64,000 nucleotides of DNA from Mobula hypostoma (Eukaryota), in the NCBI RefSeq assembly GCF_963921235.1, contig NC_086097.1, forward strand, positions 83,020,001 to 83,084,000, given 5' to 3'. How positions within the stretch are numbered: position 1 is the first letter of the stretch; each line of letters opens with the position of its first letter. The notes under the pieces are model-generated. The model made no database searches and had not been told where the DNA came from. It was given only the letters and a program-made list of their open reading frames with translations. The translations under genes were made by a program, and so were the position numbers. Shown here one piece after another: positions 9,334 to 52,082 of the stretch.

Positions 9334-12300
9334 ACTTTACAATTTCTCCTTGAAACAAGCATTACATTGATTGTTGATTGCAGGTTAAGACAAGTTCTTT
9401 TGCATGACTTATGAAAGCAGAGAAGCAGATTTTAAATCAGAACAGTAAGGTGAGTTGGCTATCAGGTGACATTTGTTAAGAAGGAGTGAAAGAGCTCTGT
9501 TTTTGCCATTATCAGCCTCTTTGACTCCTTTTAGCCCATTATAGAATGTGTCCCAAATGACCTTCCCTGTGGTAGGTATTCCAATGGTATTGGGAAGCAA
9601 TGCTCAAACAAGGTATGCTTAAAAGTGAAAAACAAGGATATTGTCCCTTGACATTCATCCACAAAAAATGAGAAACTTGCCAGGTTTAAATTCCTGTGCA
9701 TACACCTGCATTCAAATGGAATACTGAGTACCTGCCATGCAGACATGGTTTCTGAGTACGATATTTTTCATTTGGGGGTAGTCCCATAGTATGCACGCAA
9801 GCTTCATTTCCATAATTAAATAAAATTGCTGCTTTGTGTAGAGTTCCATTTCTCTGATGCCTGATTATTGATTCGTGGTTCTTCCTCAATATTTCACAAA
9901 GAGGCAAGTGTTTCCGCTCAGAAACTACGGTGTTGGTTTTGTATCTTCAACATTAGTAAATACAGAACTGAATTAACTGAAATATTTTGTCTGTTTCTTG
10001 ACTGTTGTTTGTTATCGTTCATTGGTAGTGTAGTTCTCTGCACCTGCTGATACTCCAGCTTCTAGTTCATGAACACATTTTTCTTTAGGTGTAGAAAGTT
10101 CCTCAGAAAAAGCCTCATGTTTGCAACTAATTATGCAACTAATCTTTTTAGCAATATTTTCATCAAGAAGCCTTCGCTGCTGGAATCCATCGTTAACATA
10201 TCAATTTTGTACAAAAACCTCTTATAACCTAACCCCTGATCAGTCACCCAAAACATATATACCATGAAACCAGATGCTTTTGGTATGTGTCAGAAATTCA
10301 GGAATGCTAATGCAAGCTGTGAGGCTTTTAAGTGGCAGTCAAAAGCTGACAGTTGTATTAAAACTTAGACCAAAGTCTTGGGGTCATAATGAAAGAACTT
10401 ATGCAGAGAAGTGAGGAGGTGAGTACGTTAATCATAGTTTTTAAAATTACGTCATAAATAAACATGGAATGCACTTGCACAAATACATGCTGACATTGCT
10501 TTCTCCTGATAGGACATTCATTACGATATTTATGGTCCCATTCTTAGAAAGAACCTCAAATTAAAATAGCGTAATTTAACAGTCACTTTGTGACCAGCAC
10601 TTCACTACATGTGTTCTAGATCAGTATCAAAGCCTCTTTAAGAAGCCTATTCCCCTGTAAACAAAAAAAAATCTCCTATAAATGGGAGTCAAAGGACACT
10701 ATGAAGTTGACTTGTAATCATATCTGGAAGGCTTAGCTTCAATCTGAAGCTTTTAGTGAGCAGACTCTTGCAGCGTCATGCAGAGAGGTTGTGAGGGGGT
10801 AATTGCCTGTTTATTAAATTTTGGATTACCAGACTGTTCAGGGCCACAGAGGATCATAATGTTATATTCGCAACAATGCTGAAGTTGCAGAATTATTTAA
10901 TTGCCACCTTTGGACTTCCAAACCTCGTAAATGTAGATATGACAATTTTTATTTGTTTCAATGCAGTACTCATGAAATACTGAATTAAAGTATACTGGGT
11001 GTTCATGCACTGAGAATAATCACACCTCAATTTCTCAGTCCATTAAACCAAAAGACAAATTGCTTACTTAATGCTGAATCTGCTGATGCTGCCTTAGCAG
11101 CTTTTGCTGTTATTGCTAAGTGTGAATCCAGAGGTTGCAGTTTAATGCATGGGATGGAGAGAGGGGATAAACACAAACAATGGCAGAGCCGTGCCATGAG
11201 GAACGCCACAGTTGCTGTAAACTTGAAATAAAACAGAATTTTGGAACTAGCCAACAGGTCAAGCAATATGGAGATAAAAACAGTTAATGTTGGAGGTTGA
11301 TGACCTTTGATCCAAACTTGTCCAGTTATGTTACAAACTGGAAAAACTAGTTATCTGAAGTTGTCAAATTAAAATATCCCCTCTCCCTCCTTTCCTCATC
11401 CTCTCACCTTCTCTACAGTTTAAAATCAATTTGTTTTGTCTCTTCCTCAATTTTGATGCAGGATCTTCAGCCTGAAACATTTTTGTATTTTCACAGATGC
11501 TGAATGTTTTCTGGTTTTATTCAGGTTGATGGCAGTGGCACCTTTATTTTGATTTCACCTTTCTTTAAATTCTAAATTGATCTAGTTAATTTAATTCACC
11601 CACTGTTAAGGTGGGATTATACTTCCTATTTTGCTATTTTACATCCTGACCACTAAATCAGGTACCGAAATCCAAGTGCGCCTGATGCTATGTGCCTGTG
11701 ATACTACCGCGAGTAGGTTTTTCATTGCACCTGTGCATATGAGAATAAACTGAACTTCAGTGAAAAGACAAAGTCACCCTCATCAAGTTCTGATGAACAG
11801 TCTTCAGGCTGAAATATTGACTCTGTTTCTCTTCCCACAGATGCCACCTGACCCACTGAGTATTTCCAGCATTTTCTGTTTTTGTTTAAAGTAAATAAGG
11901 TGTTGCTGTATCCTGCCACGGTGCCACACACGGTGCTCCTTCTTCCAAGACTGTCACTCGGGATCGAGGAAAACTTGCTTTCACTTCAGTTCCCTAAATC
12001 CTGAAGTGTTTATGAATCCAAAGATTGTGTCATAGGTGGGGCAGGTAGTATGGGAGATAGTACACATTTTCTGCCATTTTTCCTCAATTCTGCATACGCA
12101 AGGTTCTGCAGTAAATCTTTAATTTTATTTTGAAGCTATCAAATTAAACTGTAGTTTTGTCTCTCTTTCCAGCAAGCATGTTTCATAATTAACAGTGTGG
12201 ATAATGCAGATCAGATTAAAATGTTAGCCCTAATCAGCAAATATATTTTGATAACCTCAGGACATTTCCTCTATGAGATGATGGACTTGTATGTTTTTGC

Positions 12301-13771: not shown

Positions 13772-15552
13772 TGTTACGTACCCCGTAACTGGGTTGCCAA
13801 ACCAGCAGAAATGGACCACTCAGTTGGAGTCTTGATTACTGGAACTAAGAAAGTTTTATTAAAGAAATAAGCAACACAGTACTCTAATAGTCAGGATATA
13901 AATGCAACAGGTTAGCAATGAATAAACACACATGTACACAGAACTAGGATAATAGGGTCAATCAAGCTCTATCACAGTCTAGGGGTAAAATGATCAATCA
14001 CAAGTGACAGAGTTCAGTTCGCAGTAATCACTGTTGTGCCGTTGGAGAGAGAGAGAGAGAGAGAATGAATGAATATTCAAATCGGATTCCAAACAGACCT
14101 TCGATATTCCTCTGTTACGTACCCCGTAACTGGGTTGCCAAACCAGCAGAAATGGATCACTCAGTTGGAGTCTGGAGTATTAGAACTAAGAAAGTTTTAT
14201 TAAAGAAACAAGCAACACAGTAATCGAAAGGATAATAAATGCAACAATTCAACAATGATAACCACACATGTGCACAGAATTCAGATAACAGCATCAATCA
14301 AGCTCTATCGTTGTCTAGGGGTAAATGACCAATTTCAAAATTACTCAAAGTTCAGTCCAGTTTGTAGTTCAGTTCGCAGTAATCGTTGTCATGGCGATGG
14401 ACAAGGTGGGGAAGAGAGACATAGAATAGGAACAACTCATTATTCAGCACAGCTTCACTCACAGACCAGCGAGATGGCTCACAAACAGCATTTGGGCGGG
14501 TCCTTGGTGATGTCACCTGAGGTCACCGACTGTGACCCCTCCTCCAGATGCGGTCGATCCTCTGCAGTGAACCCGGCACCCAGGCAAGGGCGGACACACA
14601 CCGGGTTCCCGCTGATCGTACCTTTCCACCCTGTGCGTTGTCCGGTACTTCTCACCACTCGTGAGAGGCGCACCGCTTCCAGGGTCTCGTTACCTCGGGT
14701 GGCGTGTGTGTCTGTCTTAGCGAACCTGTCCCTTTTTATCCCCCTGCTGGGGTATCGCCTGTCCATCACTTCAAACAGTTCAGGGTTCAAAGGGGGGAGC
14801 CGCTCCAGACAGCTCTTCCTCCCACATCCCTTCATTACACATCTCCAGACGCTGCTCCATTGTTCCTTATCTCTCCTTCCCCTGAGGGCAGGTGGCAGAC
14901 CAACTGCTGATGCCACTGATGCTAGCCCAGGCCAGCAAACATCTTAATTTTATGTGTATTCTCGTAACACCTCGCAGTCAGCTTTCAGGCGAGCCCTTTG
15001 TAATGTCTTCTGAGGTCACCGACTGTGACCCCTCCGTTCTAGATACGGTCGCTCCTCGGCGGTGAACCCAGCACCCAGGCAAGGGCGGACACACACACCA
15101 GGTTCCCGCCAACCGTATCTTTCCACCCTGTGCGTCTATGGCTGGTCCCACGACCAGCCCTCCAAAACTTCCACTGACTTGTGGGGGTGCACCGCTTCCA
15201 GGGTCTCGTTACCTCGTGGTGTCATGAGGGGTGTCTGTTGCCTTAGCGAAACTGTCCCTTTTTATCCCCCCCTGTTGGGGTATCACCTGTCCATCAGACT
15301 TCAAACAGTTCAGGGTTCAAAGCAGCCGATCTTGACAATACTCAGACCGGTGTCTCCTTCCGTTAAACTCTCTCGTCTCCTCCCGTTAAACTCTCTCGTC
15401 TCCTCATTAACATTTCCAAATGCTGCTCCATTGTCTTACTTATCTCTCTCTCCTGAAGACAGGTGGCAGATCAACTGATGATCCCACTTGTGATAGCACA
15501 GGACAGTTAACATCTTAGTCTATGTGTACTTTTGTAACCCTCTTTTGTCACA
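13772..15552 (-). repeat. 3' LTR, interrupted by a solo LTR at 14113-14969
   Basis: Colinear with 19429-20331 once the nested insertion is removed; abuts the PPT. Confidence 0.95.
14113..14969 (-). mobile_element. Solo LTR of a sister subfamily nested in the 3' LTR
   Basis: Termini tgttacg...cgtaaca; 4-bp TSD cctc (14109-14112, 14970-14973); homologous to, but diverged from, the host LTR. Confidence 0.92.
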
Positions 15553-15564
15553 CCCCTCCCCTTT
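15553..15564 (-). other. Polypurine tract
   Basis: Minus strand aaaggggagggg immediately precedes the TG start of the 3' LTR. Confidence 0.9.
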
Positions 15565-15669
15565 AAGAATTTTTACCGGGGTAAAAATTATAAGCATGAA
15601 TACATTATTAGATACACACAAATATACATCTTCATCAGCTATTTAGCTAATACAGAGAATTTTAAGTTG

Positions 15670-17019
15670 TCAACACCTTGACAGACAGTCAGCAATCACA
15701 TTTTCCATTCCTTTTATATGTGTAATTTTTATATCAAATTCCTGTAGCACCAGACTCCAACTTAGCAATCTTTTGTTTTTATCTTTCATAGTAGCCAAAA
15801 ACACTAATGGGTTATGGTCAGTGTAAATTACCAGTGGTTTCCATGCCGGGCAAATATAAACTTCAAAATGTTGTAATGCTAGTATGATGGCCAGTAACTC
15901 CTTTTCCACAATGGAATAATTTCTCTGATGGATATTAAATTTCTTAGAAAAGTAAGCGACTGGGTGCTCAACCCCCTCTTTGTCTGTCTGCAACAGCACC
16001 GGCCCGGCAGCTTCGTCGCTAGCATCTGTTGCTAGGGAGAAGGGTTTTGAAAAATCAGGCGCATTTAGCACAGGATTGTGACACAGAATCGCCTTCAGAC
16101 TCTCAAAGGCTTGTTGACAAAGGTCGTTCCACACAAACTTCGCATTCTTTGGCAAAAGCTTAGTGAGAGGGAGGGTAATATCCACAAAGTTTTTGCAAAA
16201 CTTCCTATAGTACCCCACCATCCCCAAGAACCTTCTCAGGGCTCTCTTGTCTGTTGGGGTGGGGACCTCTGAGATAGCCCGCACCTTGGCCTGCATCGGA
16301 GCCAGCTGCCCCTGTCCTACCACAAATCCCAGATAAGTGACCTTTGCGTGGCTGAACTCACTTTTTGTGAGGTTTACTGTCAGGTTGGCTTCGGACAGCC
16401 GTTTAAACAGCTCCTCTACTGCCACAATGTGCTCCTCCCACGTGTCACTCCAGACCACTAAATCATCAATATACGCTTCTGTGTTCCTTAATCCTTTTAT
16501 TACTGAATTAATCATCCTCTGGAAGGTCCCTGGGGCATTTTTCATGCCAAAAGGTAGAACATTATACTCATATAAACTGGAGGGAGTGACAAATGCCGAG
16601 ATTTCTCTAGCCCGGTCAGTTAAAAGAACACACCAGTACTCTTTCAGCAAATCCATCTTTGTGATGTACGTAGCTCTCCCCACTTTATCGATGCAATCCT
16701 CTACCCTTGGGATGGGGTAAGCATCAGTTTTCGTGATAGCGTTCACCTTTCTGTAATCTGTTCAGAATCGGATGCTCCCATCGGCTTTCGGAACAACCAC
16801 ACAGGGGGACGCCCATTCCGACTTGGATGGCCTAATAATATCTGTGGCTAGCATGTGTTCAATCTCTTTCTCCACTAGCTTGCCTTTCTCCAAGTTCATC
16901 CTATAGGGATGTTGTTTAATAGGCTGGTCTGAGGTGACCACAACATCATGCACCGTCCCTTTGCATCGCCTTGGGACATCGGGACATATATCTGCGTGCC
17001 AGTTAATTAGCCTTATCAA
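15670..17019 (-). pseudogene. Gypsy pol: reverse transcriptase and RNase H (frame-disrupted; ORFs 16762-17019 and 15670-16746)
   Basis: PIKQHPYR, WASPCVVVPKADGSIRF, LPFGMKNAPGTFQR, YIDD, FLGMVGYYRKF, TDAS, EKELLAI, TDHNPL, NVIADCLSR. Confidence 0.95.
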
Positions 17020-17028
17020 TGGCCTGCT

Positions 17029-18597
17029 TTATTCAGGGGTTAGGTGAGAGACCTTATCAGCAAAATTAGCCAGAACAATAGAGTTCTCCAATTGGGTCGG
17101 CACCATACTCATCTTTTCAAGATGGGTTTTCCCCGTATCATTCGACACCCCAGTCTCATTAATTTCCATGATAACACCAACCAGGTCTGTTCTCTGATCG
17201 TGGTGGGCTTTTAACATGTTAATAGCCTCTAACTGTGTTAACTCACGTCTGCAATAGTCGATAACATCCTTCCTCCTGTGCAACCAGTAAAACTCTTTCA
17301 TGATTCCGCCGACTATTTCCCTCCCTCCAAAATGTCCACCGAGCTGTATCTTGTGGGCCAGGTTAAGAATCTCATCCCCATAAATTTTTGGCACCATCCC
17401 CCATTCCTCATCTGCGGGTACAGTACTTGGTCTCCCCTTCTTCCTTAGCACTCCCTCCTCCACACAATAGCCTACTGGCTCCCTTTTCACTGCTGCTTTA
17501 GAGAGAGCTGTCTCCGCCGAAACCATCAACTCCTGCCTCTGTACAAATTCCTTCCTGGCTAATGCTAAGTCTGCCTCAGCTCCCTCACTTCCTCCTGTTT
17601 CACTACACTCCTTCTTTTCACTTTCTACCTCCTCCTGGTACAAGGCTGGTAGAAACGTCTCAGCTAAATTTACTTCGGCAGTCTTTCTGGACACACGCCG
17701 AGTCACTGCGCAAACAGGATGAACCTGTGAGTCCATGGGCGGGGCCTCAATGCTGGCAGGCTGACCTGTCAATCTCACTGCCGAGAACACAATTCCCCCG
17801 GCTAGGTCATTACCGAGCAAGACTTCCACGCCTTTCATTGGTAATTCGGGCCTCACCCCGATCGTGACCGGTCCAGAGACCAAGTTGCTTTGTAGGTGTA
17901 TCTGGTGCAAAGGGACTGCCTCAGTCCCTTTTCCAATGCCTTTTATGACCCTGACTTTCCCAGTCTTGGTCTCTGAACTAAAGTCTAACACCCCCTTTAA
18001 TATCAATGACTGACACGCTCCCGCGTCTCTCCAGATCCGCACTGGAACTGGGTTTAACCCCTCCTTCACTGACACCAATCCGGCCGAGATAAACCTCTCG
18101 CGCCCTTCCTGAACTTTGTCAGACCTTTCCTCTTCTAGCGGTTTGTTTACCAGCTCAATACAGCCAGTCAAAATCGCCGTTTTTCCTTCCCCCGTCTCCT
18201 TCTTTGGGGCAAAGCACCTGGACACAAAGTGTCCGACTTTCCCACAATTATAACAGACGACCCCAGGAGACCTCCTACCAGACTGCTCCCGGTCTACCTT
18301 ATCCTTCTCATTAGTCTCCGGCTTACTTTCTGACTTTTCTGGCGGACTCTCCCCGCCTTCCTGACTACCCTTCTGGTAGCCCTTACTCGGGGCAAACTTC
18401 ATTTTATGCGTCAACGCGTACTCATCCACTAACTTAGCAGTTGCGGCTAACGTGGCTGCCTTTTTCTCATCTAGGTAGGGTCTCATACCTTCGCGGACAC
18501 AACCTTTAAACTGCTCAATCAGGATCAGCTGTAGCAGTCTGCCATAATCCCCATTTACCCCCTTCGAGGCACACCAATGCTCACAATATGTCTGCAT
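17029..18597 (-). pseudogene. Gag C-terminus (SCAN-like end, CCHC knuckle), aspartic protease and integrase remnant
   Basis: LLQLILIEQF; CYNCGKVGHFVSRC; RDAGACQS (degenerate DTGA) and VLLGNDL; AHKIQLGGHFG...FYW...YCRR followed directly by INMLKAH. Confidence 0.88.
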
Positions 18598-18611
18598 CTC
18601 ACGGGCAAACT

Positions 18612-19330
18612 CTAAATATGTTTCCTCGCATTCCAGAACCTCCGCCGGTATGCCTCCGGGACCAACTCATAAATCCTGAGGATGGCCTCTTTCACCACCT
18701 CATACCTCTGGGCATCTTCCGCAGACAAAGCTGAATAAGCTTGTTGTGCTTTTCCTTTAAGTACACTCTGAAGCAAAACAGCCCACTTATCCCTCGGCCA
18801 GTCCCGACTTGCAGCAACTTTTTCGAAATGGAGAAAGTACCGATCCACATTGGTATCGTCAAATGGGGGAACCAGCCTAACGTCCTGGGTCGCCCTGAAC
18901 CCTCCGCCTTGGTTCGGCATGGGCCCCTGCTCTGCCATCATCTTTAACCTCTCCAGCTCGAATTCCCTTTCCCTCTGCCTCTTTTCTTGCTCCAACTGCC
19001 TCTCTCTCTCTCTCTCTCCTGCCGTTCTAACTGTTTTTCTTCGTGTTCTAGCTGCCGTACCTGGAACTCGTGCTCGAGTCTCAGTTTTTCAATCTGCACC
19101 TGTACTGCATCTCCACCAGGTTTTCCCATAGATACCACCTCCAGCTCCCCTTGGGGAAACACACCTTTAGATACATAGTGCTCTACGATAGCTCTGTGTA
19201 TCTCCGCTCTCCTCATTATCGACTTCCCCTTAACAAGATTCAACCGTTTGGCCACAGCTGCCAATTCCGCTTTCCTGGCATCCTCTAATGCATCTAAGGT
19301 CGGCGCCTTTAGAAATTCCTCAATCTCCAT
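18612..19330 (-). pseudogene. Gag N-terminus (frameshifted at the AG microsatellite ~19000-19017)
   Basis: Coiled-coil region, then VPPFDDTNVDRYFLHFEKVA..WPRDKWAVLLQSVLKGKAQQAY..ELVPEAYRRRF, typical of Gmr1-like Gag. Confidence 0.85.
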
Positions 19331-19406
19331 TTCTGCTGTTTGCCTCTTCTTTCTATCAGGAATTTTAACCCAATCAATTTACCCCATCCCAAATTTAGCG
19401 TTCAAG

Positions 19407-19424
19407 ATCCCGGATGGGCCCCCA
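19407..19424 (-). other. Primer-binding site for tRNA-Pro
   Basis: Minus strand TGGGGGCCCATCCGGGAT versus the canonical Pro PBS TGGGGGCTCGTCCGGGAT (16/18), 4 nt inside the 5' LTR. Confidence 0.9.
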
Positions 19425-19428
19425 GTTA

Positions 19429-20331
19429 TGTTACGTACCCCGTAACTGGGTTGCCAAACCAGCAGAAATGGACCACTCAGTTGGAGTCTGGATTACTGAA
19501 ACTAAGAAAGTTTTATTAAAGAAATAAGCAACACAGTACTCTAATAGTAAGGATATAAATGCAGCAGGTTAGCAATGAATAAACACACATGTACACAGAA
19601 CTAGGATAATAGAGTCAATCAAGCTCTATCGCAGTCTAGGGGTAAAATGATCAATCACAAGTGACAGAGTTCAGTTTAGTTCAGTTCGCAGTAATCACTG
19701 TTGTGCCGTTGGAGAGGGAGAGAGAGAAAGAATGAATATTCAAATCGGATTCCAAACAGACCTTTGATATTCCTTGCAGTCAGCTTTCGGGCGAGCCCTT
19801 TGTAATGTCTTCTGAGGTCACCGACTGTGACCCCTCCGTTCCAGATATGGTCACTCCTCGGCGGTGAACCCGGCACCCAGGCAAGGGCGGACACACACAC
19901 CAGGTTCCCGCCGACTGTCTCTTTCTACCCTGTGCGTCTATGGCTGGTCCCACGACCAGCCCTCCAAAACTCCCACCGACTTGTGGGGGCGCACCGCTTC
20001 CAGGGTCTCGTTACCTCGTGGTGTCGTGAGTGGTGTCTGTTGCCTTAGCGAACCTGTCCCTTTTTATCCCCCCCTGTTGGGGTATCGCCTGTCCATCAGA
20101 CTTCAAACAGTTCAGGGCTCAAAGCAGCCGGTCTTCACAATACAGAGACCGGTGTCTCCTTCCGTTAAACTCTCTCGTCTCCTCATTAACATTTCCAAAT
20201 GCTGCTCCATTGTCTTACTTATCTCTCTCTCCTGAAGACAGGTGGCAGATCAACTGATGATCCCACTTGTGATAGCACAGGGCAGTTAACATCTTAGTCT
20301 ATGTGTACTTTTGTAACCCTCTTTTGTCACA
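19429..20331 (-). repeat. 5' LTR (903 bp)
   Basis: tgttacg...tgtcaca, adjacent to the PBS; minus-strand AATAAA near 19510. Confidence 0.95.
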
Positions 20332-21217
20332 GTGTTCACAAGAGATGAAAAATGTTGTGGCAGTGTTCACTTCTACAACAATGGAAGTCGATTCTGTTTC
20401 CCTGAATCCATAGTTTCTCAGCAGTTAATCACTTTATGGAATTAGAGGAAATTGCGCACTGAAGAAAGAGACTTCTCTCTGGAAACTCCATTGTTCCTGT
20501 GCACAACAAAGGAAAATGAGGAGGAAAGAATGTAAGTAGGCAATTCCTGACTTGCAATTCCTGATTTACCACAGAAGAAGTTTCATTACTTTATTTGAGC
20601 CAGAGAACAAGAAGATTATATTTTCTACTTAATGTTGAATGGGAACAGGCAGGCTGATGAAATGCTGTGACAAATGAGATCTACTGAAGGCAATGTCTTC
20701 ACTGTAACAGTGGTGAGAACATCAGCACGTAATTTTGCATCTGTTCCATTTTTGCAGATAATTAGTCAACAGTTATTTGCTGCACTGGGAACAAGGCTGC
20801 TAATCTGTGCTCATTCAATCCAGCATAAAATGCAACAAAGCAAAGAAAGATAGAGAGAATTTCTTCATGTTGGTTGGACGGAGATGATTGCCTCATGCAA
20901 TGATGTCACTCATCTTGATAAAAGTCCTATCTCAAAGTCCAACAACATCAAGATCAGGAAGGGATACCAATCAACCATATCGTGCAGTCAAAACATAGAA
21001 CTCAGGAGTAACTGTAACATACTTGTTCTCACTACAATCAGGTGATGGGATATCAAAGTATCTGCTTCAGTCTTAGCTGACGACACTTTATCCAGTCTAA
21101 GGATGAGAGGTAGAATTTTGGTTTAATAAGGCCTGAGAGTTCAAGCAGAGGCAACCAGTATTCATCAAGTTTGCTGGTGAACGCAGCAGGCCAGGCAGCA
21201 TCTCTAGGAAGAGGTAC

Positions 21218-21253
21218 AGTCAACGTTTCAGGCTGAGACCCTTCGTCAGGACT
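21218..21253 (-). ncRNA. Minimal type I hammerhead ribozyme motif
   Basis: AGUC CUGACGA AGG GUCUCAG CCU GAAAC GUU GACU: core CUGANGA/GAAA, stem I AGUC/GACU, stem II AGG/CCU, NUH triplet GUU. Confidence 0.75.
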
Positions 21254-21271
21254 AACTGGAACAGAACAGTT

Positions 21272-21307
21272 AGTCCTGCTGAAGGGTCTCGTCCTGAAAC
21301 GTCGACT
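21272..21307 (+). ncRNA. Minimal hammerhead motif with a core mutation (CUGCUGA)
   Basis: AGUC CUGCUGA AGG GUCUCGU CCU GAAAC GUC GACU. Confidence 0.55.
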
Positions 21308-24029
21308 GTACCTCTTCCTAGAGGTGCTGCCTGGCCTGCTGCGTTCACCAGCAACTTTGATGCGTGTTGCTTGAATTTCCAGCATCTGCAGAATTGCTCG
21401 TGTTTACGCAATCAGTATTCAAACAAGTTTTGTTTCCGTTGAGGCCTGAAAGTGTGATTTAATAGGTGTTTCTGTGGTATATTACAAAGGAAGTAGGCTT
21501 CTCAAGCATAAAGAGCTAAAGAAGATGAAAGGGAGAGAAAGACCAATGCCCTGGACATGAGAATAGTCAGAGGTGTGTTCCAGTTACTGTTCTGCTCATC
21601 ATTTAAGCTTGGTGGGTCTCAGATTGCAACCTTCTGACTCTGACCTTCCTGAGCTGGTCCCATTTGCCTGGTGTTGGCGCATATCCCTCTAAAGCTTTCC
21701 TCGCCAAGAACCTGTCCTAATGTTGTTTAAACATTGTAATTGTGTCTACCACTAACACTTCCTTTGGCAAGCTCGTTCCATTTACCCACCACACTCTATG
21801 TGGAAGAAATATTGCCTCTCATGTCCTCCTGAATTATGTAGGACTTCAAGACCCAAAAGCACACAAACTGATCACTCAAACCAGAAAATTCCTCTCCACG
21901 CTAGCCTCCTCCCGCCCCCTTCACTTTACCCCGTCAGCATATCCTGCCACTTCTGGCAGCTTAGTGTGTAAAAAAAGCCTTTGAGCAGTTAAAAAAAAAA
22001 GAAAAGAAATTGACAATAGATTGACAAACAGAAACAGGGAACAATAGAAAAATGGATAAGAGATAGAAAATATCCCAGTGGAGATAGATCATATTTGTGT
22101 GATTCGTTCTTTTTTTCATGTTGGGTGTTTAATGTTTTCTTTGAATGGGTTCCATAGTGTTTCTTTGTTTCGTGGTTGTCTGTGGGAAGATGAATCTCAG
22201 GGTTGTATACCAGATACATATTTTGGTTGTATACTGCCTACATTCATTGATAATAAATGTACTTTGAATTTTAAAATGATCAGATGGCATTGTGTCCAAT
22301 TTTTAGCTGAAGTTCAAACTAAAATAATCTGAAAATTATGTGAAAAAAGGATTCTATTCATCTTTTTTTCAGGTTCCACCATTTGGACTCTAGTGATGTT
22401 CATATTCTGTTCCAGATACCATACCAATCCTATGATACCATTTTTTCAATGAGACTACAATCAAGGTAATCCCTTGACAATGGCTGGGTCACAGCAAACA
22501 ACTGTCACTGTTTTCAGTTACAAATTCATACAGTTACAAAGTGAATAGCAATTGTTCCATGTATAAATCATGTACCAAAACAACAGGGCAACAGATATCT
22601 TCCTTCAAGTCAAGCAAGAAATGAACATGTTCCTAAACAGCAGTTAAGTATACCAAGAATTTGCTTTGACCAAGTTTTGTCATGTTTTGCTTTTATTTAC
22701 TGAAGACCTTTCTTATTATGATTGCATTTTTCTGGAAACATGAAGAGAGGAAATAGAGTCAGACAAAGTCTAGCCAAAAATAAAATACACAATAGAATCC
22801 TTCCAGCTAAATATTGAAAGTATATGAGCAATTGGATCAAGAGTGACCTGAAGCAGAAGGTAGGAATGATGACTCACACTTGTATGTAATGGAAAATGGC
22901 TTATTCATTCATTAGTCCATACTAAACTTAGTGTATTCTGCACTGCAAGACTGAAGAACGATTTAGAACAGGAAATATGTCTTGTCACACCCTAAAACAG
23001 ACCTAAACTACTTGAAACTTCTTCATGGAGGGTTCCCAGTTTAATACTGGTGAGATTCAAACCTGAGACAATTCAGCAGCTATTTGAAGTTCATGTTATA
23101 AATGAGATTGGCATTTAGTGTACATTTTTGCGCAATGTGAACGTAGGTGGTATTAACCATTATATTTGTAATGATACTATACTTCAAAACTGTTGTGTTA
23201 CGACAATTCAAAGAAGCACAAATATACATACAGCATATATAGAAAATTCATCTAGGGTTCCAAATAATTGGTAATATTAGAATCTACAGGACTTTAAAGT
23301 ATAGCTTTGCTCTTCATATCAGTAGGATCTTAATATTTCAGTTGAGTCTATAAATGTTTCTGTGCATGTGTTTTGCTAGATCAAGGCATGGAATGTCTGG
23401 AAAGGATTTGTTGGCAACTCGCCTTCACAAGATTTCTGATTTAAAAGGGATAAACTACTAACTGGAACAACTAAAAGAAATTAGGTTTAATAAGCTGGTA
23501 GAGTTAGTCAATTAAGCACTTGTCCATTGCTTTCCAAAAAGATGTTAAATGAATGGTGAAGGTTTTGGCAAATTCTGATACATTACAATCAGATAACTGA
23601 GGGTGACAAAGTCAGCAGACTGATAATTTCTGCAACTTGTTCCCTTACGATCCATAAAAGATCAGTGGATTTCATAGAAAACTTGGGAAATTGTAGGAAT
23701 ATTGAACCAAGAATTGACTTTTTAATCTGCAGGCCTATGCACTGAGATAATGGCTGGCCTGTGATCTAAATCTGTGTACCTGTTATTTCCCTTCGATTAT
23801 AAAAATATTAATAATGTCAGATTCAAAATCTAAACTTGACCTCGTGTGAACTTTTACTTACAAAAATTTACCTTGTTCTGTGTGTTGAGATGTCTCTGCA
23901 TCTCTTGTGGGAAAAGCCTTACTGTAATTGTTAGATAATATCTTACAGTAAGGGACCTTCTGACTTGCCACGATAATTTTCTCCCCATCTTTCTCCTTAC
24001 TATCTTAGAATCAAAATCAAGTAACCTTG

Positions 24030-24168
24030 TATTACAAACAAGAGAAAATCTGCAGATGCTGGGAATCCAAGCAACACACACAAAATGCAGGAGGAACTCA
24101 GCAGGCCAGGCAGCATCTATGGAAAAGAATACTGTTGACATTTTGGGCCGAAACCCTTCAGCAGGACT
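24030..24168 (-). mobile_element. Penelope-terminus relic with a degenerate hammerhead
   Basis: cagcaggccaggcagcatcta...ttgacattttgggccgaaacccttcagcaggact, homologous to the 21165-21407 arms. Confidence 0.75.
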
Positions 24169-26019
24169 CTATATTAACCTTATATTAACCTGTTTAACCT
24201 TTCAAAATGCAGAGGATACTCTTCTCATGGTTTAGCATTAAGTTTTCAGTTATCGTTCTAATAAAAGCCACAAAAATGCTGAAAATGTGCAGCAGATCAG
24301 GCAGCATGAGAAAGTTAAAGTTTGAACTCAAAAACCCTTCATAAGAACTGAAAAATTAAAATAAGATTAATTTTGAATTACATTAGAGTCTGTATTCAAA
24401 ATTATGAAGGCCAACATCTCATTAGCCTTTTAAAATATTTTCACCATCCTGTATTTATGCTCCTCCTGCCTGCTATGTCCTGCCATTTCATGCCCAGCTT
24501 TTCACCATTTAGATAACTTTCAGTTTTCTCCTTCTTCAATACAAACTGGATGACATCACTGATGCAGAAATCCATTTTTACCATTTTTGATGGTTGTCTT
24601 AATCTGTGAACAATTCTATGATACAATGTTCTCATCTACATTGCTTACACCAGGGGCTGCCAATCCCTACCATTAACCAATTTCCCCCGGGATCAATAAA
24701 GTATGACTATGACTATGACTAACAGTGGGGTCCATGGACCGCAGGTTGAAAGCCCATGGCTCACCCTGCTTCTTATGTTATCACTCAACTTATTCTGTGT
24801 GTTTTTTTATCATGAATTGTTCATAAATACTACTGACTATTGCTGCACCCTAATCACAGATCGAAAGGAAAGATCGTCAGTCATATCTCGTCAATTAAGA
24901 TGTTTTCCCATTTTCTCTACTATCTGCCTTCTGACTCACAATTGCCTCGAAGTACACAACATGTGACTTCAGCTCATACTATCGCAAGAGAAACTTCAAA
25001 TTCCTTCTAGGAATCCACAAAATGAATATCGATAGACATTTCACAATCCACTAATGTAATCAAATCTTCAAAGAATTTTCAAATGATATATCACAGCTGA
25101 ATTCCAGAAGGAGGAAGATTCAAAGATGTTACTCAACAGAGTTAAAATGGATATTGCATTTAATGAATGAGAAATAAGCCACTTTTCCTAGCAGCCCATT
25201 CAGTTGGGTGTCATCCACTGGGGGTGTTATTATTCGATGAAACAGGAGTGAAATTGCATGTTGGAAATGGGTTCTCTTATAGAAACTACCATTTTAAAAT
25301 GTAGCTGAGGAAACATGAGGAAGACAAATGGATCTGGCTGAAATCAGATTATTTAAGGTGGAGTTAGTAAGTTGAAGCAAGTCTCTAAATGTTGGTATGT
25401 TTTAAAATATGAAAACAAATTCTTTAGAGTCTCACACCTGGAAATCAAGATCAAAGAGAGTTTCTTTAGAAAATCATTTCCCTCAGAAGAAAGATTTCCT
25501 GAGTTTATTTATTTGGAACATCAAGTAAAGAAATAATTACTTGTCTTCTCTGGTGAGCAGAATATTTTTTGGAATGGATGAAACTATGCTGCTCTTCCAA
25601 TGAAAAACATTCTTCACTTTTATGATCAGATATAGAGACATTCATAAAAAGCGATACTCTTGTTGCACCAAGAAGTCCCTTTCCTTCGACTGTGGCAAAC
25701 ATTGTTCCGATGTTTATACTGCACTGCGTTATGCCTGGATATTATGAAGGAAGGAGAGTAGTTGTCCAAGTCAGAATGTTGACCAGCCTGTCACTATAAT
25801 TGATCTAATCTTCCTTCCCTGACGTAAAGATCATGAGCCTGGAGTTGTGTTGGCAGAGTAATACATGTAGTGAGTAGTCTTTACTTCATTCATAATATGC
25901 CAGCACGAGATGGGGTGGATGTGAGTCTAAAGTAAATTCCTCTAGAATGGGGGTTGAAATCCTTGAGGGGTTTTCTAACGTCACCCTTCCAGCGCAATGA
26001 ACATACGGATACCTTCATA

Positions 26020-28400: not shown

Positions 28401-30916
28401 ACAGTCCTGTGCTCCCTCAATTCACTAGCCCATCTGAAGTGCATTGTAAGAAATATTGTACACGTCTTTCATTGTCTGATGGCAACTGGATTGTGCAAAA
28501 AGGCTTGACCTCAGACAAATTTCTTCTCAGCATTCCCACCATTCCTACAAAACACTAGAAGTACCAAAATTCATGGAATCATTGCAAAAGCCAACTGAAA
28601 TCAATTATCAACTAACGTAACAATATTTAGTGAGATATTCAATAAGCACCTATAGAAGCTTCTTCACTTGATGAAAGCATGTTCCTCTACAGGGGATTTA
28701 GTAGGCTAGTAGGCTCTCAGTCACCTTAAGCCATGGGGATTAATGGTGTCAGTTGCATGAATATGCCAACTCTATGGTAATTGTTCAAAAAAATCATTGC
28801 TAAGCATCACACACTAGTATTCAGCAACACACAAAATACTGGAGGAATTCAACAGCTCAGGCAGATAAGGGTCTGGATCCAAAACATTAACTGTTCATTT
28901 GTGTGTTGCTCAAGATTTCCAGCATCTGCAGAATCTCTCGTGTGTTCCATGCACAGACCTTTAATTGCCAAACTATGTCATCTCCTCTCCCTTATAAAGA
29001 GCAAAGTTTTACACAGGAATTCTACATTTTAAGACTAAACAATATTAATGTAAAATGTAATGAAAATAAATTAAATGGACGTCTGTACTCACCATCACAT
29101 GAAGTGCCAAATCTTCAAAGACAATGTTGTTTCACATCATCCTACAACTTCAATGCTCTTATGTAGGAATGTAAATCAATTGAAAATGTCTTTTCACATT
29201 TATATTGAATGGGAAGTAAATGAGACATCCTTGAGAAACGGCGCACACACTTCTCTATGATTTGCTTTTTTTTGTCAAATTCTTCACTTTTATCACTAGC
29301 ATTGGCCCTGTGATATTGCACCCTGAAATCTTTAAGGAAAGCCAGTCATATAAAGTGTGATCAAAGTCGTCAAGCGTCAATCCATGTACCATCTGGCACC
29401 TTTCAACACATTTATCACTGCTTGAGTTCAGGAAGAACTCTTTAAATCATGAAATGCAAAGTTTGATTTTGTCAATTGTTGAGGAATCAATGTTGAATTC
29501 TGTTATGTATTTCCTCTTTCTGTTCCAATATTAGACCTTTGTCTGGAATATTTCTCTCCAGTGAAAAGGATAGATGGGAGAAATACGATTCAGCTTATGA
29601 AGCACAACCAGAATCAACTCCCACTTGTAAACTCACATAAAGGACTAAGGAGAGGGGTGAGGACTGACAAGGTGTAGCCAGTGGGAGTCTGTAGGTCAAC
29701 AAAACTGCTTTAGAGCCTGGTGTGCCAAATTCAAATTTACATTATTGAAAAGATTAATTTATTTTATATCCTTGGGAATTTTCAGATGTTGCTTGAGAAG
29801 TCCAGAGCATAAATAGTAGATAAATGAGAGACTACTGTAGCTAGGATGTGCAGCTCTAAAATGATGTGGCACGAGTATTCTTCATTATTCCAAGTAGTTT
29901 GATCCAGATGTATGCTAACTGCCTCACCAATATGACATTCAGTATAATTCTTGCTATTAATAGACCATTAGATGCTCTTTTGGAATCATAGTGGTGCCAA
30001 ATGCAATCAACCAATCAAAAAGCATCAAGATCTAGACCTGAAATTTTCAACCTGCATCTTTTGTTCATGGCTAAAAATCAATGTAAATACAAAAATTAAA
30101 TGTCACAGGAATCATAATCTGCAATCAGGTGCAATATATGTTAATATAATCTGATGTCACACGTAAGCACTAATCATAACGTCCTGGTTAATGTACTACA
30201 GAATTGTGGACTCCCAAAATATTCATTCTTCCCAAATAGAAGGTATACTGTAGATTGCCAAGCCTGTATGCATAGATTTTCTTATACAGAAACTGCATTG
30301 TAAATACATAGAATCTCCATTGTAAAGTGTATTTACAATTCATATAAAGGCAGGTAATGTAGGAAATATTCAGCGGATCAAGGAGCCTCTGTAAAGAGAG
30401 AAACAGAGCTGACATTTCATCCAAACTAGGCAGTCAGAAAACAAGCATGTCTTAAAGAAGAGAAAAGTTTCAGAGAAGGGAGAAGGTGGAGATGGTGTAC
30501 AATAGTTGAAGACCAAGAGAGATAGTGATGTAAGCAATGGTTGTGCTGGCTGAGAGGGTGTGATGAAGGTTTGTGAATTGTAGATGATCCCACTGAAGGG
30601 GATGTAAATAGAACAAGGTGAATGGATGGAAAGGAGAAAGAAGAAGTGAAACAATGCTGAACTATGAGATACACTACAGTTGCTGGTGGTCTGAAATAAT
30701 AGACAATATCAGGAATGCCCAGGAAGACAGTATCTGTAAAAGTGGAAAAGCAGAGTTACTGTTACAGATTGAGCATTTCCAGTATTTTCTAGCTATATTG
30801 TTGAATTCTAATTCAGTGCCGACTCTTCCACACACAACAAAGAGAACTACAAAGAGCTGCAATAGACTGACGTAATTTTAAAACTGGAAGTTTCTTAAGA
30901 TCAACATCATCAAAAT

Positions 30917-46088: not shown

Positions 46089-47118
46089 ATGGCTTTGGCT
46101 CAAACAGGCTTCGGCGAGAACAGGCAGAGGCCAGGGTATGTTCCGGTAAGTTTTTTGTTCAGATTGTTTAGTGCAGTGAGAATGCCAGGCAGGATGTTGG
46201 AATGCTCCTCTTGCAGGATGTGGGAAGTCAGGGAGCCCTCCGGTGTCCCTGACAATGACACCTGCAAGAAGTGCATCCAGCTGCAGCTCCTGACAAACCG
46301 CGTTAGGGAACTGGAGCAGGAGCTGGATGACCTGCGGGTCATTCGGGAGAATGAGGAGATTATAGATAGTAGCTACAGGGAGGTAGTTACACCAAAGGAG
46401 CAGAGGACAGGAAATTGGGTCACTGTCAGGCGAGGGAAGAGGAAAGGGCAGGCAGAGCAGGGTTCCCCTGTGGCCATTCACCTCAACAACAAGTATACCG
46501 CATTGGATACTATTGGGGGGGGATGACTTACCTGGGACTAGCTGCAGTAGCCGGATCTCTGGCACTGAGTCTGGCTCTGCAGTGCAGAAGGGAGGGGGGA
46601 GAAAGAGGAGAGCGGTAGTAATAGGGGACTCGATAGTTAGAGGTGCAGATAGAAGGTTCTGTGGTCATGACAGAGAATCCAGGATGGTTTGTTGCCTCCC
46701 AGGTGCCAGGGTCAAGGATGTCTCTGATCGATTGCATGACATTCTGAAGTGGGAGGGTGACCAGCCAGATGTCGTGGTGCACATCGGTACCAATGACATA
46801 GCAAGGAAGAGTGAAGAGGTCCTGGACATTGAGTATAGAGAGCTTGGTAGGGAGTTGAAAAGCAGGACCTCAATGGTGGTAATCTCAGGATTGCTACCTG
46901 TGCTAGGTGCCAATGAGGGTAGGAATAGGATGCTCTGGAGGAGGAACAAGTGGATGAGGAACTGGTGTAGGGGGCAGGGTTTCAGATTTCAGGATCATTG
47001 GGACCTCTTCTGGGGCAGGTGGGACCTGTACAAGAGAGACGGGTTACACTTGAACCACAGGGGGACCAATATCCTTTCAGGGAGGTTTGTTAGTGCTATT
47101 GGGGAGGCTTTAAACTAG
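46089..47118 (+). pseudogene. CR1 ORF1: zinc finger, coiled coil and SGNH esterase-like domain (frameshift in the G8 run ~46515-46522)
   Basis: CSSC...CKKC, LTNRVRELEQELDDL, VIGDSIVRG, LPGA, VHIGTND, DGLHL. Confidence 0.9.
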
Positions 47119-47120
47119 AT

Positions 47121-49718
47121 TTGCAGGGGGATGGGAACCAAAGTGCCAGAGCTGACAGTGTGGCTGGGGTGAAAATAAATGATGTTGAAAGTTTAAGCAA
47201 ATCCGCTGATAGAAAGGTTGTGAGCGGTGGTAAAAATCTTCTGAGGTGTATACATTTCAATGCTAGGAGTATTACGGGGAAGGCGGATGAGTTGAGGGCG
47301 TGGATTGACACGTGGAATTATGATGTTGTAGCAATTAGTGAAACTTGGCTACAGGAGGGGCAGGACTGGCAGCTTAATATTCCAGGGTTCCGATGTTTCA
47401 GATGTGATCGAGGCAGAGGAATGAAAGGTGGGGGAGTAGCATTGCTTGTTAGGGAAAATATTACAGCAGTGCTCAAGCAGGACAGATTAGAGGGCTTGTC
47501 TACTGAGTCCTTATGGGTGGAGCTGAGAAACAGGAAAGGTATGGCCACGTTAGTGGGATTGTATTACAGACCACCCAAAAGTCAACGAGACTTGGAAGAG
47601 CAAATCTGCAGAGAGATAGCAGGCAACTGCAGGAAACATAAAGTTGCGGTGGTAGGGGATTTTAATTTTCCATACATTGATTGGGACTCCCATACTGTTA
47701 GGGGTCTAGATGGTTTAGAGTTTGTAAAATGTGTTCAGGAAAGTTTTCTAAATCAATATATAGAGGGACCAACTAGAGGGGATACAATATTGGATCTCCG
47801 GTTAGGTAACGAATTAGGGCAAGTGACTGAAGTCTGTGTAGGTTCAAAGTATGATCACTTTGGTTTCAGTGATCATAACACCATTAGTTTCAATTTGATC
47901 ATGGACAAGGATAGATCTGATCCTAGGGTTGAGGTTCTGAACAGGAAGAAGGCCAAATTTGAAGAAATGAGAAAGGATCTAAAAAGCGTGGATTGGGACA
48001 GGTTGTTCTCTGGCAAAGATGTGATTGGTAGGTGGGAAGCCTTCAAAGGGGAAATTTTGAGAGTGCAGAGTTTGTATGTTCCTGTCAGGATTAAAGGCAA
48101 ATTGAATAGGAATAAGGAACCTTGGTTCTCAAGGGATATTGCAACTCTGATAAAGAAGAAGAGGCAGTTGTATGAAATGTATAGGAAACAGGGAGTAAAT
48201 CAGGTGCTTGAGGAGTATAAGAAGTGCAAGAAAATACTTAAGAAAGAAATCAGGAGGGCTAAAAGAAGACATGAGATTGCCTTGGCAGTCAAAGTGAAGG
48301 ATAATCCAAAGAGCTTTTACAAGTATATTAAGAGCAAAAGGATTGTAAGGGATAAAATTGGTCCTCTTGAAGATCAGAGTGGTCGGCTTTGTGCGGAACC
48401 AAAGGAAATGGGGGAGATCTTAAATAGGTTTTTTGCGTCTGTATTTACTAAGGAAGCTGGCATGAAATCTATGGAATTGAGGGAATCAAGTAGTGAGACC
48501 ATGGAAACTGTACAGATTGAAAAGGAGGAGGTGCTTGCTGTCTTGAGGAAAATTAAAGTGGATAAATCCCCGGGACCTGACAGAGTGTTCTCTTGGACCT
48601 TGAAGGAGACTAGTGTTGAAATTGCAGGGGCCCTAGCAGAAATATTTAAAATGTCGCTGTCTACAGGTGAGGTGCCGGAGGATTGGAGAGTGGCTCATGT
48701 TGTTCCGTTGTTTAAAAAAGGATCGAAAAGTAATCCGGGAAACTATAGGCTGGTGAGTTTAACGTCAGTAGTAGGTAAGTTATTGGAGGGAGTACTAAGA
48801 GACAGAATCTACAAGCATTTGGATAGACAGGGGCTTATTAGGGAGAGTCAACATGGCTTTGTGCGTGGTAGGTCATGTTTGACCAATCTGTTGGAGTTTT
48901 TCGAGGAGGTTACCAGGAAAGTGGATGAAGGGAAGGCAGTGGATATTGTCTACATGGACTTCAGTAAGGCCTTTGACAAGGTTCCGCATGGGAGGTTAGT
49001 TAGGAAAATTCAGTCGCTAGGTATACATGGAGAGGTGGTAAATTGGATTAGACATTGGCTCGATGGAAGAAGCCAGAGAGTGGTGGTAGAGAATTGCTTC
49101 TCTGAGTGGAGGCCTGTGACTAGTGGTGTGACACAGGGATCAGTGCTGGGTCCATTGTTATTTGTCATCTATATCAATGATCTGGATGATAATGTGGTAA
49201 ATTGGATCAGCAAGTTTGCTGATGATACAAAGATTGGAGGTGTAGTAGACAGTGAGGAAGGTTTTCAGAGCCTGCAGAGGGACTTGGACCAGCTGGAAAA
49301 ATGGGCTGAAAAATGGCAGATGGAGTTTAATACTGACAAGTGTGAGGTAGTGCACGTTGGAAGGACAAACCAACGTAGAACATACAGGGTTAATGGTAAG
49401 GCACTGAGGAGTGCGGTGGAACAGAGGGATCTGGGAATACAGATACAAAATTCCCTAAACGTGTCGTCACAGGTAGATAGGGTCGTAAAGAGAGCTTTTG
49501 GTACATTGGCCTTTATTAATCCAAGTATTGAGTATAAGAGCTGGAATGTTATGCTGAGGTTGTATAAGGCATTGGTGAGGCCAGATCTGGAGTATTGTGT
49601 TCAGTTTTGGTCACCAAATTACAGGAAGGATATAAATAAGGTTGAAAGAGTGCAGAGAAGGTTTACAAGGATGTTGCCGGGACTAGAGAAACTAATGCAA
49701 GCAGGCTTTTTCCACTGA
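47121..49718 (+). CDS. CR1 ORF2 (APE endonuclease and RT), 865 aa open; C-terminus lost to an internal deletion/frameshift
   Basis: NARS, ISETW, GDFN, SDH; PGPD, SQHGF, YMDFSKAFDKV, QGSVLGP, FADDTK. Confidence 0.93.
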   Translation: MQGDGNQSARADSVAGVKINDVESLSKSADRKVVSGGKNLLRCIHFNARSITGKADELRAWIDTWNYDVVAISETWLQEGQDWQLNIPGFRCFRCDRGRGMKGGGVALLVRENITAVLKQDRLEGLSTESLWVELRNRKGMATLVGLYYRPPKSQRDLEEQICREIAGNCRKHKVAVVGDFNFPYIDWDSHTVRGLDGLEFVKCVQESFLNQYIEGPTRGDTILDLRLGNELGQVTEVCVGSKYDHFGFSDHNTISFNLIMDKDRSDPRVEVLNRKKAKFEEMRKDLKSVDWDRLFSGKDVIGRWEAFKGEILRVQSLYVPVRIKGKLNRNKEPWFSRDIATLIKKKRQLYEMYRKQGVNQVLEEYKKCKKILKKEIRRAKRRHEIALAVKVKDNPKSFYKYIKSKRIVRDKIGPLEDQSGRLCAEPKEMGEILNRFFASVFTKEAGMKSMELRESSSETMETVQIEKEEVLAVLRKIKVDKSPGPDRVFSWTLKETSVEIAGALAEIFKMSLSTGEVPEDWRVAHVVPLFKKGSKSNPGNYRLVSLTSVVGKLLEGVLRDRIYKHLDRQGLIRESQHGFVRGRSCLTNLLEFFEEVTRKVDEGKAVDIVYMDFSKAFDKVPHGRLVRKIQSLGIHGEVVNWIRHWLDGRSQRVVVENCFSEWRPVTSGVTQGSVLGPLLFVIYINDLDDNVVNWISKFADDTKIGGVVDSEEGFQSLQRDLDQLEKWAEKWQMEFNTDKCEVVHVGRTNQRRTYRVNGKALRSAVEQRDLGIQIQNSLNVSSQVDRVVKRAFGTLAFINPSIEYKSWNVMLRLYKALVRPDLEYCVQFWSPNYRKDINKVERVQRRFTRMLPGLEKLMQAGFFH

Positions 49719-51754
49719 GGCAAGGGGAGAAAAAAACCAGAGGACACGGGTTAAGGGTGAGGGGGGAAAAGTTTAAAGGGAACATTAGTGGGGGCTTCTT
49801 CGCACAGAGAGTGGTGGGAGTATGGAATGAGCTGCCAGACGAGGTGGTAAATGCGGGTTCTTTTTTAATATTTAAGAATAAATTGGACAGATACATGGAT
49901 GGGAGTTGTATGGAGGGATATGGTTCGTGTGCAGGTCAGTGGGACTAGGCAGAAAATGGTTCAGCACAGCCAAGAAGGGCCAAAGGGCCTGTTTCTGTGC
50001 TGTAGTTTCTATGGTTCTATGGTTCTATGGTTCGGTTGACCACAGTACAATGTCCGGGTATAGGATTGTGTGCACCACATCCGGGAACTGCAGCCTCCTT
50101 CCCACATCAACCCTCATCTCCCAGGACCTGGCCATTAGCAGCAGATTGGGCTTTGGTTGTTTTGGTTACAAAAGGCCTGGCTCCCTCTTTGATGAAGGTG
50201 ACGGCCTTCCTCAAATCTGTGCCAGCCGTCCTCTTCTTGCATCTCTCCCGCTCTAGTGTGTCAGCAAGAGCCAGAAGCACCTTATCATGGCGCCACCTAT
50301 ACCATCCTTGAGTTAGAGCTGTTTTACACCCGGACAGTATATGAGCCAGTGTCCCCTTTTGACCACAGAGCTTACAGTTCATGTCCTCTCTCATCCCCCA
50401 TGTGTACAGATGTAATGGTGTCATACACGGATCGCAAGAGGAAAGAAATACGGAAGGGCTCCAGTCTCCATAACTCTACCCATGAGATCTTGCGCTTAGG
50501 CAGATCCCATTTTGTCCAGGCACCCTGGGACCCTTGTTCCACTGCCTTTGACATCGCTTCTCTTCCTCACGGATCCGTACTTCTGCCTGTATCATGTCTC
50601 ACCTCTTCCTTATGCTTGTGTTTCCCCACTTCTGGAAGTGAACAGAGCCGAGGCCTTGCTGCCCACTGCAGGGTTTGCCGAGGATATCTCGCAGCTTCAG
50701 AGAACACACTGCCTCCTCCACAGCTGTGATGGCTGCCCACTTGCACCCAGATCTGGTTGTAACGCCTGCTTGCTTTACCAAGACGTCATTGGAATCTCTC
50801 AAGCTTAATAAGGCTCTGCATTTTGCCACCTTGAATTCTTTCACAACAGATGACAAAGGAAGCTGCAATTGCCCAGAACGAATGTAGAGGCCCGCTGAAG
50901 AGAAGCTTGGGGGAAATCCCAACCATCTCCGCAGGTGCTTGTTGGTTTTCCTCTCAATGCCCTCTACGGCAGTCATGGGGAACTCATAAAGTGTGAAGAT
51001 CCTGGGCAGAATACTGGGCAGAATGTCATATTGGTACAGCCAGGTTTGAATTTACCAGGAAGTCCAGATTTGTTGATCTTTTTCAGCCATTCGTCTGTCT
51101 GTTTCACAGCATTGGCCCCATCTGTCAGTGACACATTAAACTACTTCCCCAAGCATTTTGTCAGGTTATCTTCGATGGAAGGGATGTCCTCACCCTGAAC
51201 TTGGAGCCTAAACTTGCTAGTAACTTTGCCCTTTCTGATCACCATGCACCTGGACTTCTTGGCCTTGAAGGACATCCTCGCCCAAGTGGCTGCATTACCC
51301 AGGGTTTCCAATACCCATCTTGCTTGGAAATGTGACACAGTTGTTATAGTGATGTCGTCCATGAACCCTCATACAGCCGGCTGAACAATGCCTGACTCCA
51401 ACATCGGGCCGCGGGTTACACTTCTGCTGCTGGTAATAGGAGGTTCCCATTCCCATAATAAACAGGATGGGGAGATGGTGCACCCTGTTGGAATCCCCTT
51501 CTGGAGGTCCTGCCAACTAGTTGTGAAATGGGCAGATGTAAATCTGAGTTTGAATCCTCCTAGGTAGCTGGTGATCGTGTCTCGAATAGCCACGGGGATG
51601 TAGTAGTGGTCAAGTCCTTCTAGGATGAGGTCATGTGGAATAGACCCATAGGCATTCGCGAGGTCTAACCAGACAACTGTTACAACAGGAAATGTTACAC
51701 ATGAAAGTTGCTGGTGAACGCAGCAGGCCAGGCAGCATCTCTAGGAAGAGGTGC

Positions 51755-51790
51755 AGTCGACGTTTCAGGCCGAGACCCTTCGTCAGGACT
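51755..51790 (-). ncRNA. Minimal type I hammerhead ribozyme motif, intact core
   Basis: AGUC CUGACGA AGG GUCUCGG CCU GAAAC GUC GACU: stem I AGUC/GACU, stem II AGG/CCU, palindromic ACGU in place of stem III, GUC triplet. Confidence 0.82.
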
Positions 51791-52082
51791 AACTGAAGGA
51801 AGAGTGAGTAAGGGATTTGAAAGTTGGAGGGGGAGGGGGAGATCCAAAATGATAGGAGAAGACAGGAGGGGGAGGGATAGAGCCAAGAGCTGGACAGGTG
51901 ATAGGCAAAAGGGATACGAGAGGATCACGGGACAGGAGGTCCGGGAAGAAAGACAAGGCGGGGGGACCCAGAGGATGGGCAAGAGGTATATTCAGAGGGA
52001 CAGAGGGAGAAAAAGGAGAGTGAGAGAAAGAATGTGTGCATAAAAATAAGTAACAGATGGGGTACGAGGGGGAGGTGGGGCC

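Follow-up and report, generated by a model that had tools for sequence, protein, structure and literature searches.

The window, the whole 64,000-nt stretch of DNA that was analysed, contains a hairpin-shaped insert of 243 bp that landed in one piece and is flanked on each side by a copy of its 14-bp target sequence. The features of the insert, together with two copies of the parent family that serve for comparison, are listed below by window position.

21151–21164, plus strand: left target-site duplication (14 bp), of which the final 2 nt show microhomology to the element end; in organism C, where the site is empty, 21150 is followed directly by 21408
21165–21258, minus strand: inverted tail-less 3′ end piece (pseudo-LTR) of a Penelope-like element, 90/96 identical to 51700–51795
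21215–21258, minus strand: minimal type I hammerhead motif from the descriptor scan, with core CUGACGA and a GUU triplet but lacking helix III; cleavage predicted between 21222 and 21221
21259–21266, no strand: junction or loop, 8 nt, matching none of the element's own upstream sequence and forming part of a 5-nt tandem duplication; loose contig ends at 21258
21267–21362, plus strand: direct 3′ end piece (pseudo-LTR), cut at the 5′ position of the left arm (alignment)
21267–21310, plus strand: minimal type I hammerhead motif from the descriptor scan, with an A6C core (CUGCUGA) and a GUC triplet; cleavage predicted between 21303 and 21304
21363–21407, plus strand: one-sided Penelope tail, ~45 nt, recurring by alignment in window copies at 24036–24077 and 28900–28943; family contigs leave the stretch at 21405–21407
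21408–21421, plus strand: right target-site duplication, seen as a direct repeat and from the empty site in C
24036–24168, minus strand: solo end piece with tail and without mirror arm, flanked by its own 13-bp target-site duplication (24022–24034 and 24175–24187)
51700–53265, minus strand: 5′-truncated Penelope-like copy (RT end, CX4CX2C linker, GIY-YIG endonuclease, tail-less 3′ end piece), from ORFs and Pfam

Architecture of the insert and its relatives in the window

The two arms (21163–21258 and 21267–21362) align with 88/96 identity around the 8-nt loop, exactly where a sequence-only reading of this stretch had placed them, and each arm is 90/96 identical to the Penelope-like end at 51700–51795, which bears out the earlier view that both are copies of a Penelope terminus. 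They differ from each other at 8 of 96 sites, none of which shows a compensatory change, and both stop at exactly one common 5′ base. The outer ends of the insert are both 3′ ends of the element, one with and one without tail, and the truncated 5′ ends meet in the centre; the left arm ends within 3–5 nt of the end of the independent tail-less copy at 51700 (alignment). The 45-nt extension lies on the right side only and has no mirror image. A fully palindromic unit had been described from the sequence; its inverted arms stand, but its full symmetry does not, this one-sided tail having been overlooked. The flanking direct repeat contains 1 mismatch in 14; of 63,300 window positions, 5 have such a repeat at a spacing of 252–262, and all but this one lie in low-complexity sequence. 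[quoted passage not shown]

The ORF of the 51700 copy carries RT motifs and a GIY-YIG domain with a CxxC between GIY and YIG; the Pfam match to this domain (E 1.8e-4, 22.1 bits) falls just below the curated cut-off of 22.6. A CX2-5CxxC linker between RT and endonuclease marks Neptune and is also found in Nematis (PMC8557442), and by the motif definitions of that source the parent family appears, from its sequence, to be Neptune- or Nematis-like. The 51700–53265 copy lies within the RT frame of another LINE-like element and breaks it; ~17 extra bases separate the 3′ end of the copy from the point where the host frame resumes.

Three further relatives lie in the window. The solo copy has an A6C hammerhead core at 24153–24168, as does the right arm of the insert. 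A decayed head-to-head remnant at ~28820–28943 has a different centre and consists of an antisense end piece, a short sense hammerhead-like piece and then the tail, all with weak alignment scores. At 11786–11871 (plus strand) there is a diverged end piece (73% over 86 nt) that matches the strict minimal-hammerhead descriptor. No target-site duplications were found around the 51700, 28820 and 11786 copies. No host exons were found either; Pfam, run on 72 of the 95 frames of at least 90 aa, gave only retroelement domains, a search that short exons would escape.

Insertion history and head-to-head junctions of the family

Contigs covering 20953–21552 were examined in 4 of 24 listed public runs, from the source species (A) and relatives; run X1 is possibly the source of the window itself and is not independent support. 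A single 1,366-nt contig of organism C covers 20953–21150 and then continues directly with 21408–21552, so that 257 nt, corresponding to the insert plus one repeat, are absent. Since relative C thus has an empty site with a single 14-mer, the direct repeat is a true target-site duplication, as the sequence-only reading had held, and the empty site fixes both the insert boundaries and the duplication. Insertion after C split off is the simplest reading, precise loss in C being the alternative. The C and A flanks differ at 14 of 343 bases. The arms, with 8/96 differences, are somewhat more diverged than these flanks (binomial P 0.043, Fisher P 0.11; P 0.27 without three CpG-type changes), which is compatible with neutral decay and CpG loss, if slightly on the high side.

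Runs of organisms A and B confirm both outer junctions of the insert, with 5 differences in 422 nt in B. This bears on whether the hairpin could be a later rearrangement, either an inverted duplication or a large internal deletion of a longer head-to-head pair, or else an assembly artefact. Its exact symmetry and non-native loop could reflect repair at a later break, and none of the contigs listed for the examined runs spans the loop. However, besides the confirmed outer junctions, short two-armed forms are common among the family joints described below, and the arms are not one read folded back, because they differ at 8 sites. We consider such a secondary origin highly improbable. No RNA run was listed as containing the locus, and run X23, guessed to be RNA, gave no contig on the locus flanks; neither result has a bearing on expression.

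The family to which the insert belongs is very abundant: 69,530 contigs of run X1 match the region, nearly all of them confined to the arms and tail, whereas the flanks have a depth of ~10.5; matches to the arms also dominate the depth recorded at the loop. Analysis centred on the best-supported 15 of 407 joints. In every one of them the left arm passes into the right arm or the tail, so that all 15 represent head-to-head junctions of other copies. Their second breakpoints are heterogeneous, with 13 different positions among the 15, and 10 of the 15 leave the left arm at 21250–21254; loose ends also cluster at this place, which is the outer edge of hammerhead stem I. None of these best 15 joints is exactly symmetric; asymmetry ranges from −28 to 96 nt, and three lie within 4 nt. 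Because so many differing junctions are seen, two-armed insertions with variable centres are a routine product of the family, and the many different centres fit mirror arms made at each insertion. The solo copy at 24036–24168 and the remnant at ~28820–28943 say the same. Pattern scans for the head-to-head junction in metagenome contigs, and for family motifs in viral, metagenome and prokaryote genome contigs, gave no match; these collections evidently contain no host DNA, and the negative results therefore carry no weight.

A ribozyme cut as the origin of these junctions was rejected, as none of the best 15 of 407 joints breaks at the predicted site. The 5′ ends of family copies cluster at 21252–21253 and 21272, at the outer edge of hammerhead stem I; this places them ~30 nt upstream of the predicted cut rather than at it. 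A separate joint, from 21203 to 21364, has a depth of 866 in run X23 versus 0 in X1 and 6 in X5, and is possibly part of an abundant transcript.

The insert is very probably one extremely 5′-truncated insertion of this very abundant, Neptune- or Nematis-like Penelope element that has since decayed in place. Counting against this are the recurrence of some centres at 8–12 times flank depth, the exact symmetry of the arms, a tail of ~45 nt versus the published 30–40 nt, and the arm divergence. The recurring centres bear most directly on another origin, in which the palindrome formed once elsewhere and, as a non-autonomous fold-back mini-element, was transcribed whole and copied in trans by the Penelope protein, giving a small loop-sharing family. 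Junctions 21250–21299, 21247–21282 and 21212–21285 are each represented by one contig in A, where their depths, as a set, are 8.2, 8.7 and 11.6 times that of the flanks, although depth is not copy number, and several junctions among the best 15 of 407 occur in two or three of organisms A, B and C. The unit also includes the tail region, the place of RT initiation in a related element (PMC11167929), and pseudo-LTRs suffice for mobilization in trans in a rotifer (PMC3846280). Nevertheless, the heterogeneity of the centres and the hot spot at 21250–21254 speak against this origin, and because 10 of the best 15 joints start at the hot spot, identical junctions could recur independently. The unit contains neither a Pol III A or B box nor a poly(A) signal, RT would have to copy through a 96-bp duplex, and the left end coincides with the usual tail-less end of the family, as expected if it was made at insertion. 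We therefore regard such a mini-element as an improbable source of the insert.

A broader proposal is also unlikely, namely that some short head-to-head Penelope insertions here, this insert included, are re-transcribed and re-inserted as whole palindromes with a fixed centre, forming small protein-free families. If it were true, such a family would be a new kind of non-autonomous Penelope derivative, fixed-centre palindromes would parallel MITEs by an RNA route, their ribozymes being silent, and the junctions at 8–12 times depth would be families of this kind.

Hammerhead motifs and folding of the unit

The descriptor for a minimal hammerhead (stem I, CUGANGA, stem II, GAAA, palindromic 15–16, UH) is matched by the minus strand of the insert, whereas the plus strand fails at A6. 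Scanning the window with it gave three strict minimal hammerheads (11790 plus, 51786 minus and 21249 minus); the plus-strand motif of the insert (21276 plus) appears only when one core change is permitted. The minus motif combines a strict core with a GUU triplet, whereas the 51700 copy and the right arm have GUC. A GUU triplet cleaves more slowly than GUC. The proposal of one hammerhead per strand, with that on the minus strand intact, thus holds for the strict minus core, but the plus strand qualifies only with its core change and the supposedly intact motif carries the GUU triplet; the wider claim of a Penelope origin, minimal type I hammerhead motifs and retrotransposition with its own target-site duplication is supported. 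Data on GUU triplets were not found in the available part of PMC1636495. A6C strongly lowers cleavage with Mg2+ yet leaves activity with Mn2+ in two other ribozymes (PMC7151607, PMC3088659), and in one of them the Mg2+ rate fell more than 10,000-fold relative to Mn2+ (PMC7151607). As the solo copy at 24153–24168 has the same A6C core, this change in the insert may be inherited from the template and not a result of decay.

Rfam returned no match in the window at the gathering score. In e-value mode it gave nine sub-threshold matches (five to miRNA hairpin models and four weak ones), none of them to a hammerhead family, and these were rejected as generic hairpin matches. The absence of an Rfam hammerhead match fits a motif without helix III.

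Folding of the whole unit gave −194 kcal/mol (z −23.4), and none of 200 shuffled sequences was as stable. Relative to this rod, forcing stems I and II costs 55.9 kcal/mol on the plus strand and 53.7 kcal/mol on the minus strand. Because the arms stand head to head, the antisense arm is transcribed first on either strand; with this arm present, the probability of stem I is at most 1e-30 at all four motif-containing prefix lengths per strand (equilibrium folding, not kinetic). Only a transcript that starts at the loop would free the motif, with predicted probabilities for stems I and II of ~0.8 on the minus and ~0.07 on the plus strand. A read-through transcript would form a 96-bp rod in which both ribozymes are hidden, and the unit would therefore neither self-cleave nor need to. 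We infer that the hammerhead motifs of the insert are passengers of the end piece.

These folding results run counter to the idea, raised from the sequence, that, on either polarity, the RNA of the unit could alternate between a rod-like and a self-cleaving structure in the manner of retrozymes or viroid-like RNAs. There is indeed one hammerhead motif per strand, a minus transcript from the loop would probably form both stems, and A6C hammerheads stay active with Mn2+ (PMC7151607). The rod is nonetheless favoured by 54–56 kcal/mol, the antisense arm is made first on both strands, and the >10,000-fold loss of Mg2+ rate relative to Mn2+ seen for A6C in one ribozyme counts against the model as well. 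Minimal hammerheads show no cleavage as monomers and little as dimers (PMC4209133), and no second same-strand motif is present here. With only one cut per strand and no tandem ribozymes on the same strand, no unit-length or circular RNA would be released, and for the same lack of tandem ribozymes the likeness to retrozymes and viroids fails. A switching RNA of this kind is therefore very unlikely.

Comparison with retrozymes leads in the same direction. The insert does resemble animal non-LTR retrozymes (PMC7761336; bioRxiv 10.64898/2026.07.22.740005), which are non-coding, 150–300 bp long, carry a type I hammerhead and are related to Penelope pseudo-LTRs. Those elements, however, have head-to-tail repeats, same-strand ribozymes and circular RNA, whereas the insert is head to head with one motif per strand; it lacks the two or more head-to-tail units, each with a complete type I hammerhead, that define animal retrozymes (bioRxiv 10.64898/2026.07.22.740005). 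Plant LTR retrozymes are defined by direct LTRs, type III hammerheads, a PBS, a PPT and a 4-bp duplication (PMC7761336), and differ from the inverted arms, type I motifs and 14-bp duplication found here. The motifs resemble the minimal hammerheads of metazoan Penelope elements (PMC4209133), which are of type I without helix III and share the extra nucleotide before stem II, the palindromic ACGU and the pairing on opposite strands. In Schistosoma, dual minimal hammerheads lie on opposite strands ~100–700 bp apart (PMC4209133); the cores in the insert, unlike those pairs, are only ~27 nt apart, one being A6C and the other having the GUU triplet.

Proposed priming of the two arms

Direct and inverted pseudo-LTRs, an optional tail and a target-site duplication are the typical structure of Penelope insertions (PMC3846280; likewise PMC8557442, PMC8969392), and the insert is a tidy case of this known landing pattern, not a new viroid-like element. 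It resembles Pen2a_Av (PMC3846280) and the insertions in Fig. 2 of PMC8557442 in its head-to-head inverted end piece, one-sided tail, short duplication and 5′ truncation. Unlike them, it contains no coding sequence, and its tail (~45 vs 30–40 nt) and duplication (14 vs 8–10 bp) are longer. Poseidon of Anolis (PAc; PMC11167929) likewise has two 3′ ends that differ by a tail, with a hammerhead ~80–130 nt upstream of them; in contrast to PAc, the parent of the insert has the CX2-5CxxC linker of Neptune and Nematis. Reconstitution of inverted PAc insertions was not found in the available part of PMC11167929. The literature covered, which was largely non-subscription and included PMC6155905, gave neither a fixed-centre palindromic Penelope family nor the family of the insert in sharks or rays; the supplements of PMC4209133 could contain closer cases.

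A mechanism is proposed where the RT/GIY-YIG protein of the element would nick both target strands 14 bp apart, reverse transcription would start at the tail-end start site and stop after ~140 nt, and the two cDNA ends would finally be joined with 8 extra bases. The mirror arm most likely would arise in the same event, when the second nick primes at the inner start site and gives the tail-less end. Each nick would then prime one short cDNA, from the outer or the inner start site, and this would account for the outward 3′ ends, the one-sided tail, the 14-bp duplication and the head-to-head join. In vitro, a Penelope protein nicks and extends both target strands, and its reverse transcription begins at two neighbouring internal sites whose spacing equals the tail (PMC11167929); this protein is a predicted dimer, and ribozyme cleavage is dispensable (PMC11167929).

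Alternatively, the first cDNA may self-prime by folding back, as put forward in the Discussion of PMC3846280. Fold-back is favoured by the exact symmetry of the arms and by the 5-nt tandem duplication at the loop, which has a counterpart in 73 of 3,555 control 18-mers. This test is weak, as the arm itself determines part of the duplication. Two-nick priming is favoured by the left end, which matches the tail-less end of the family, and by a core difference between the arms that was possibly inherited. We lean slightly towards two-nick priming for the mirror arm, with fold-back only a little less probable.

The insert as found is ordinary, a real, well-bounded and decayed micro-insertion of a known kind. 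Its value lies in recording a Penelope integration cleanly, with the empty site retained by relative C. Published accounts have yet to settle the origin of the inverted arm and the one-sided tail (PMC8557442, the Discussion of PMC3846280, PMC11167929). A genome with hundreds of short two-armed insertions could discriminate between two-nick priming and cDNA fold-back through subfamily markers in the arms and their stop points.

The window also contains two other retroelements. An LTR retrotransposon at ~13772–20331, which we take to be Gmr1-like, has Pfam matches to SCAN, zinc-knuckle and integrase zinc-finger domains upstream of its RT/RNase H. At 46387–49715 on the plus strand lies a LINE whose GDSL/SGNH esterase frame overlaps the start of its endonuclease-RT frame.
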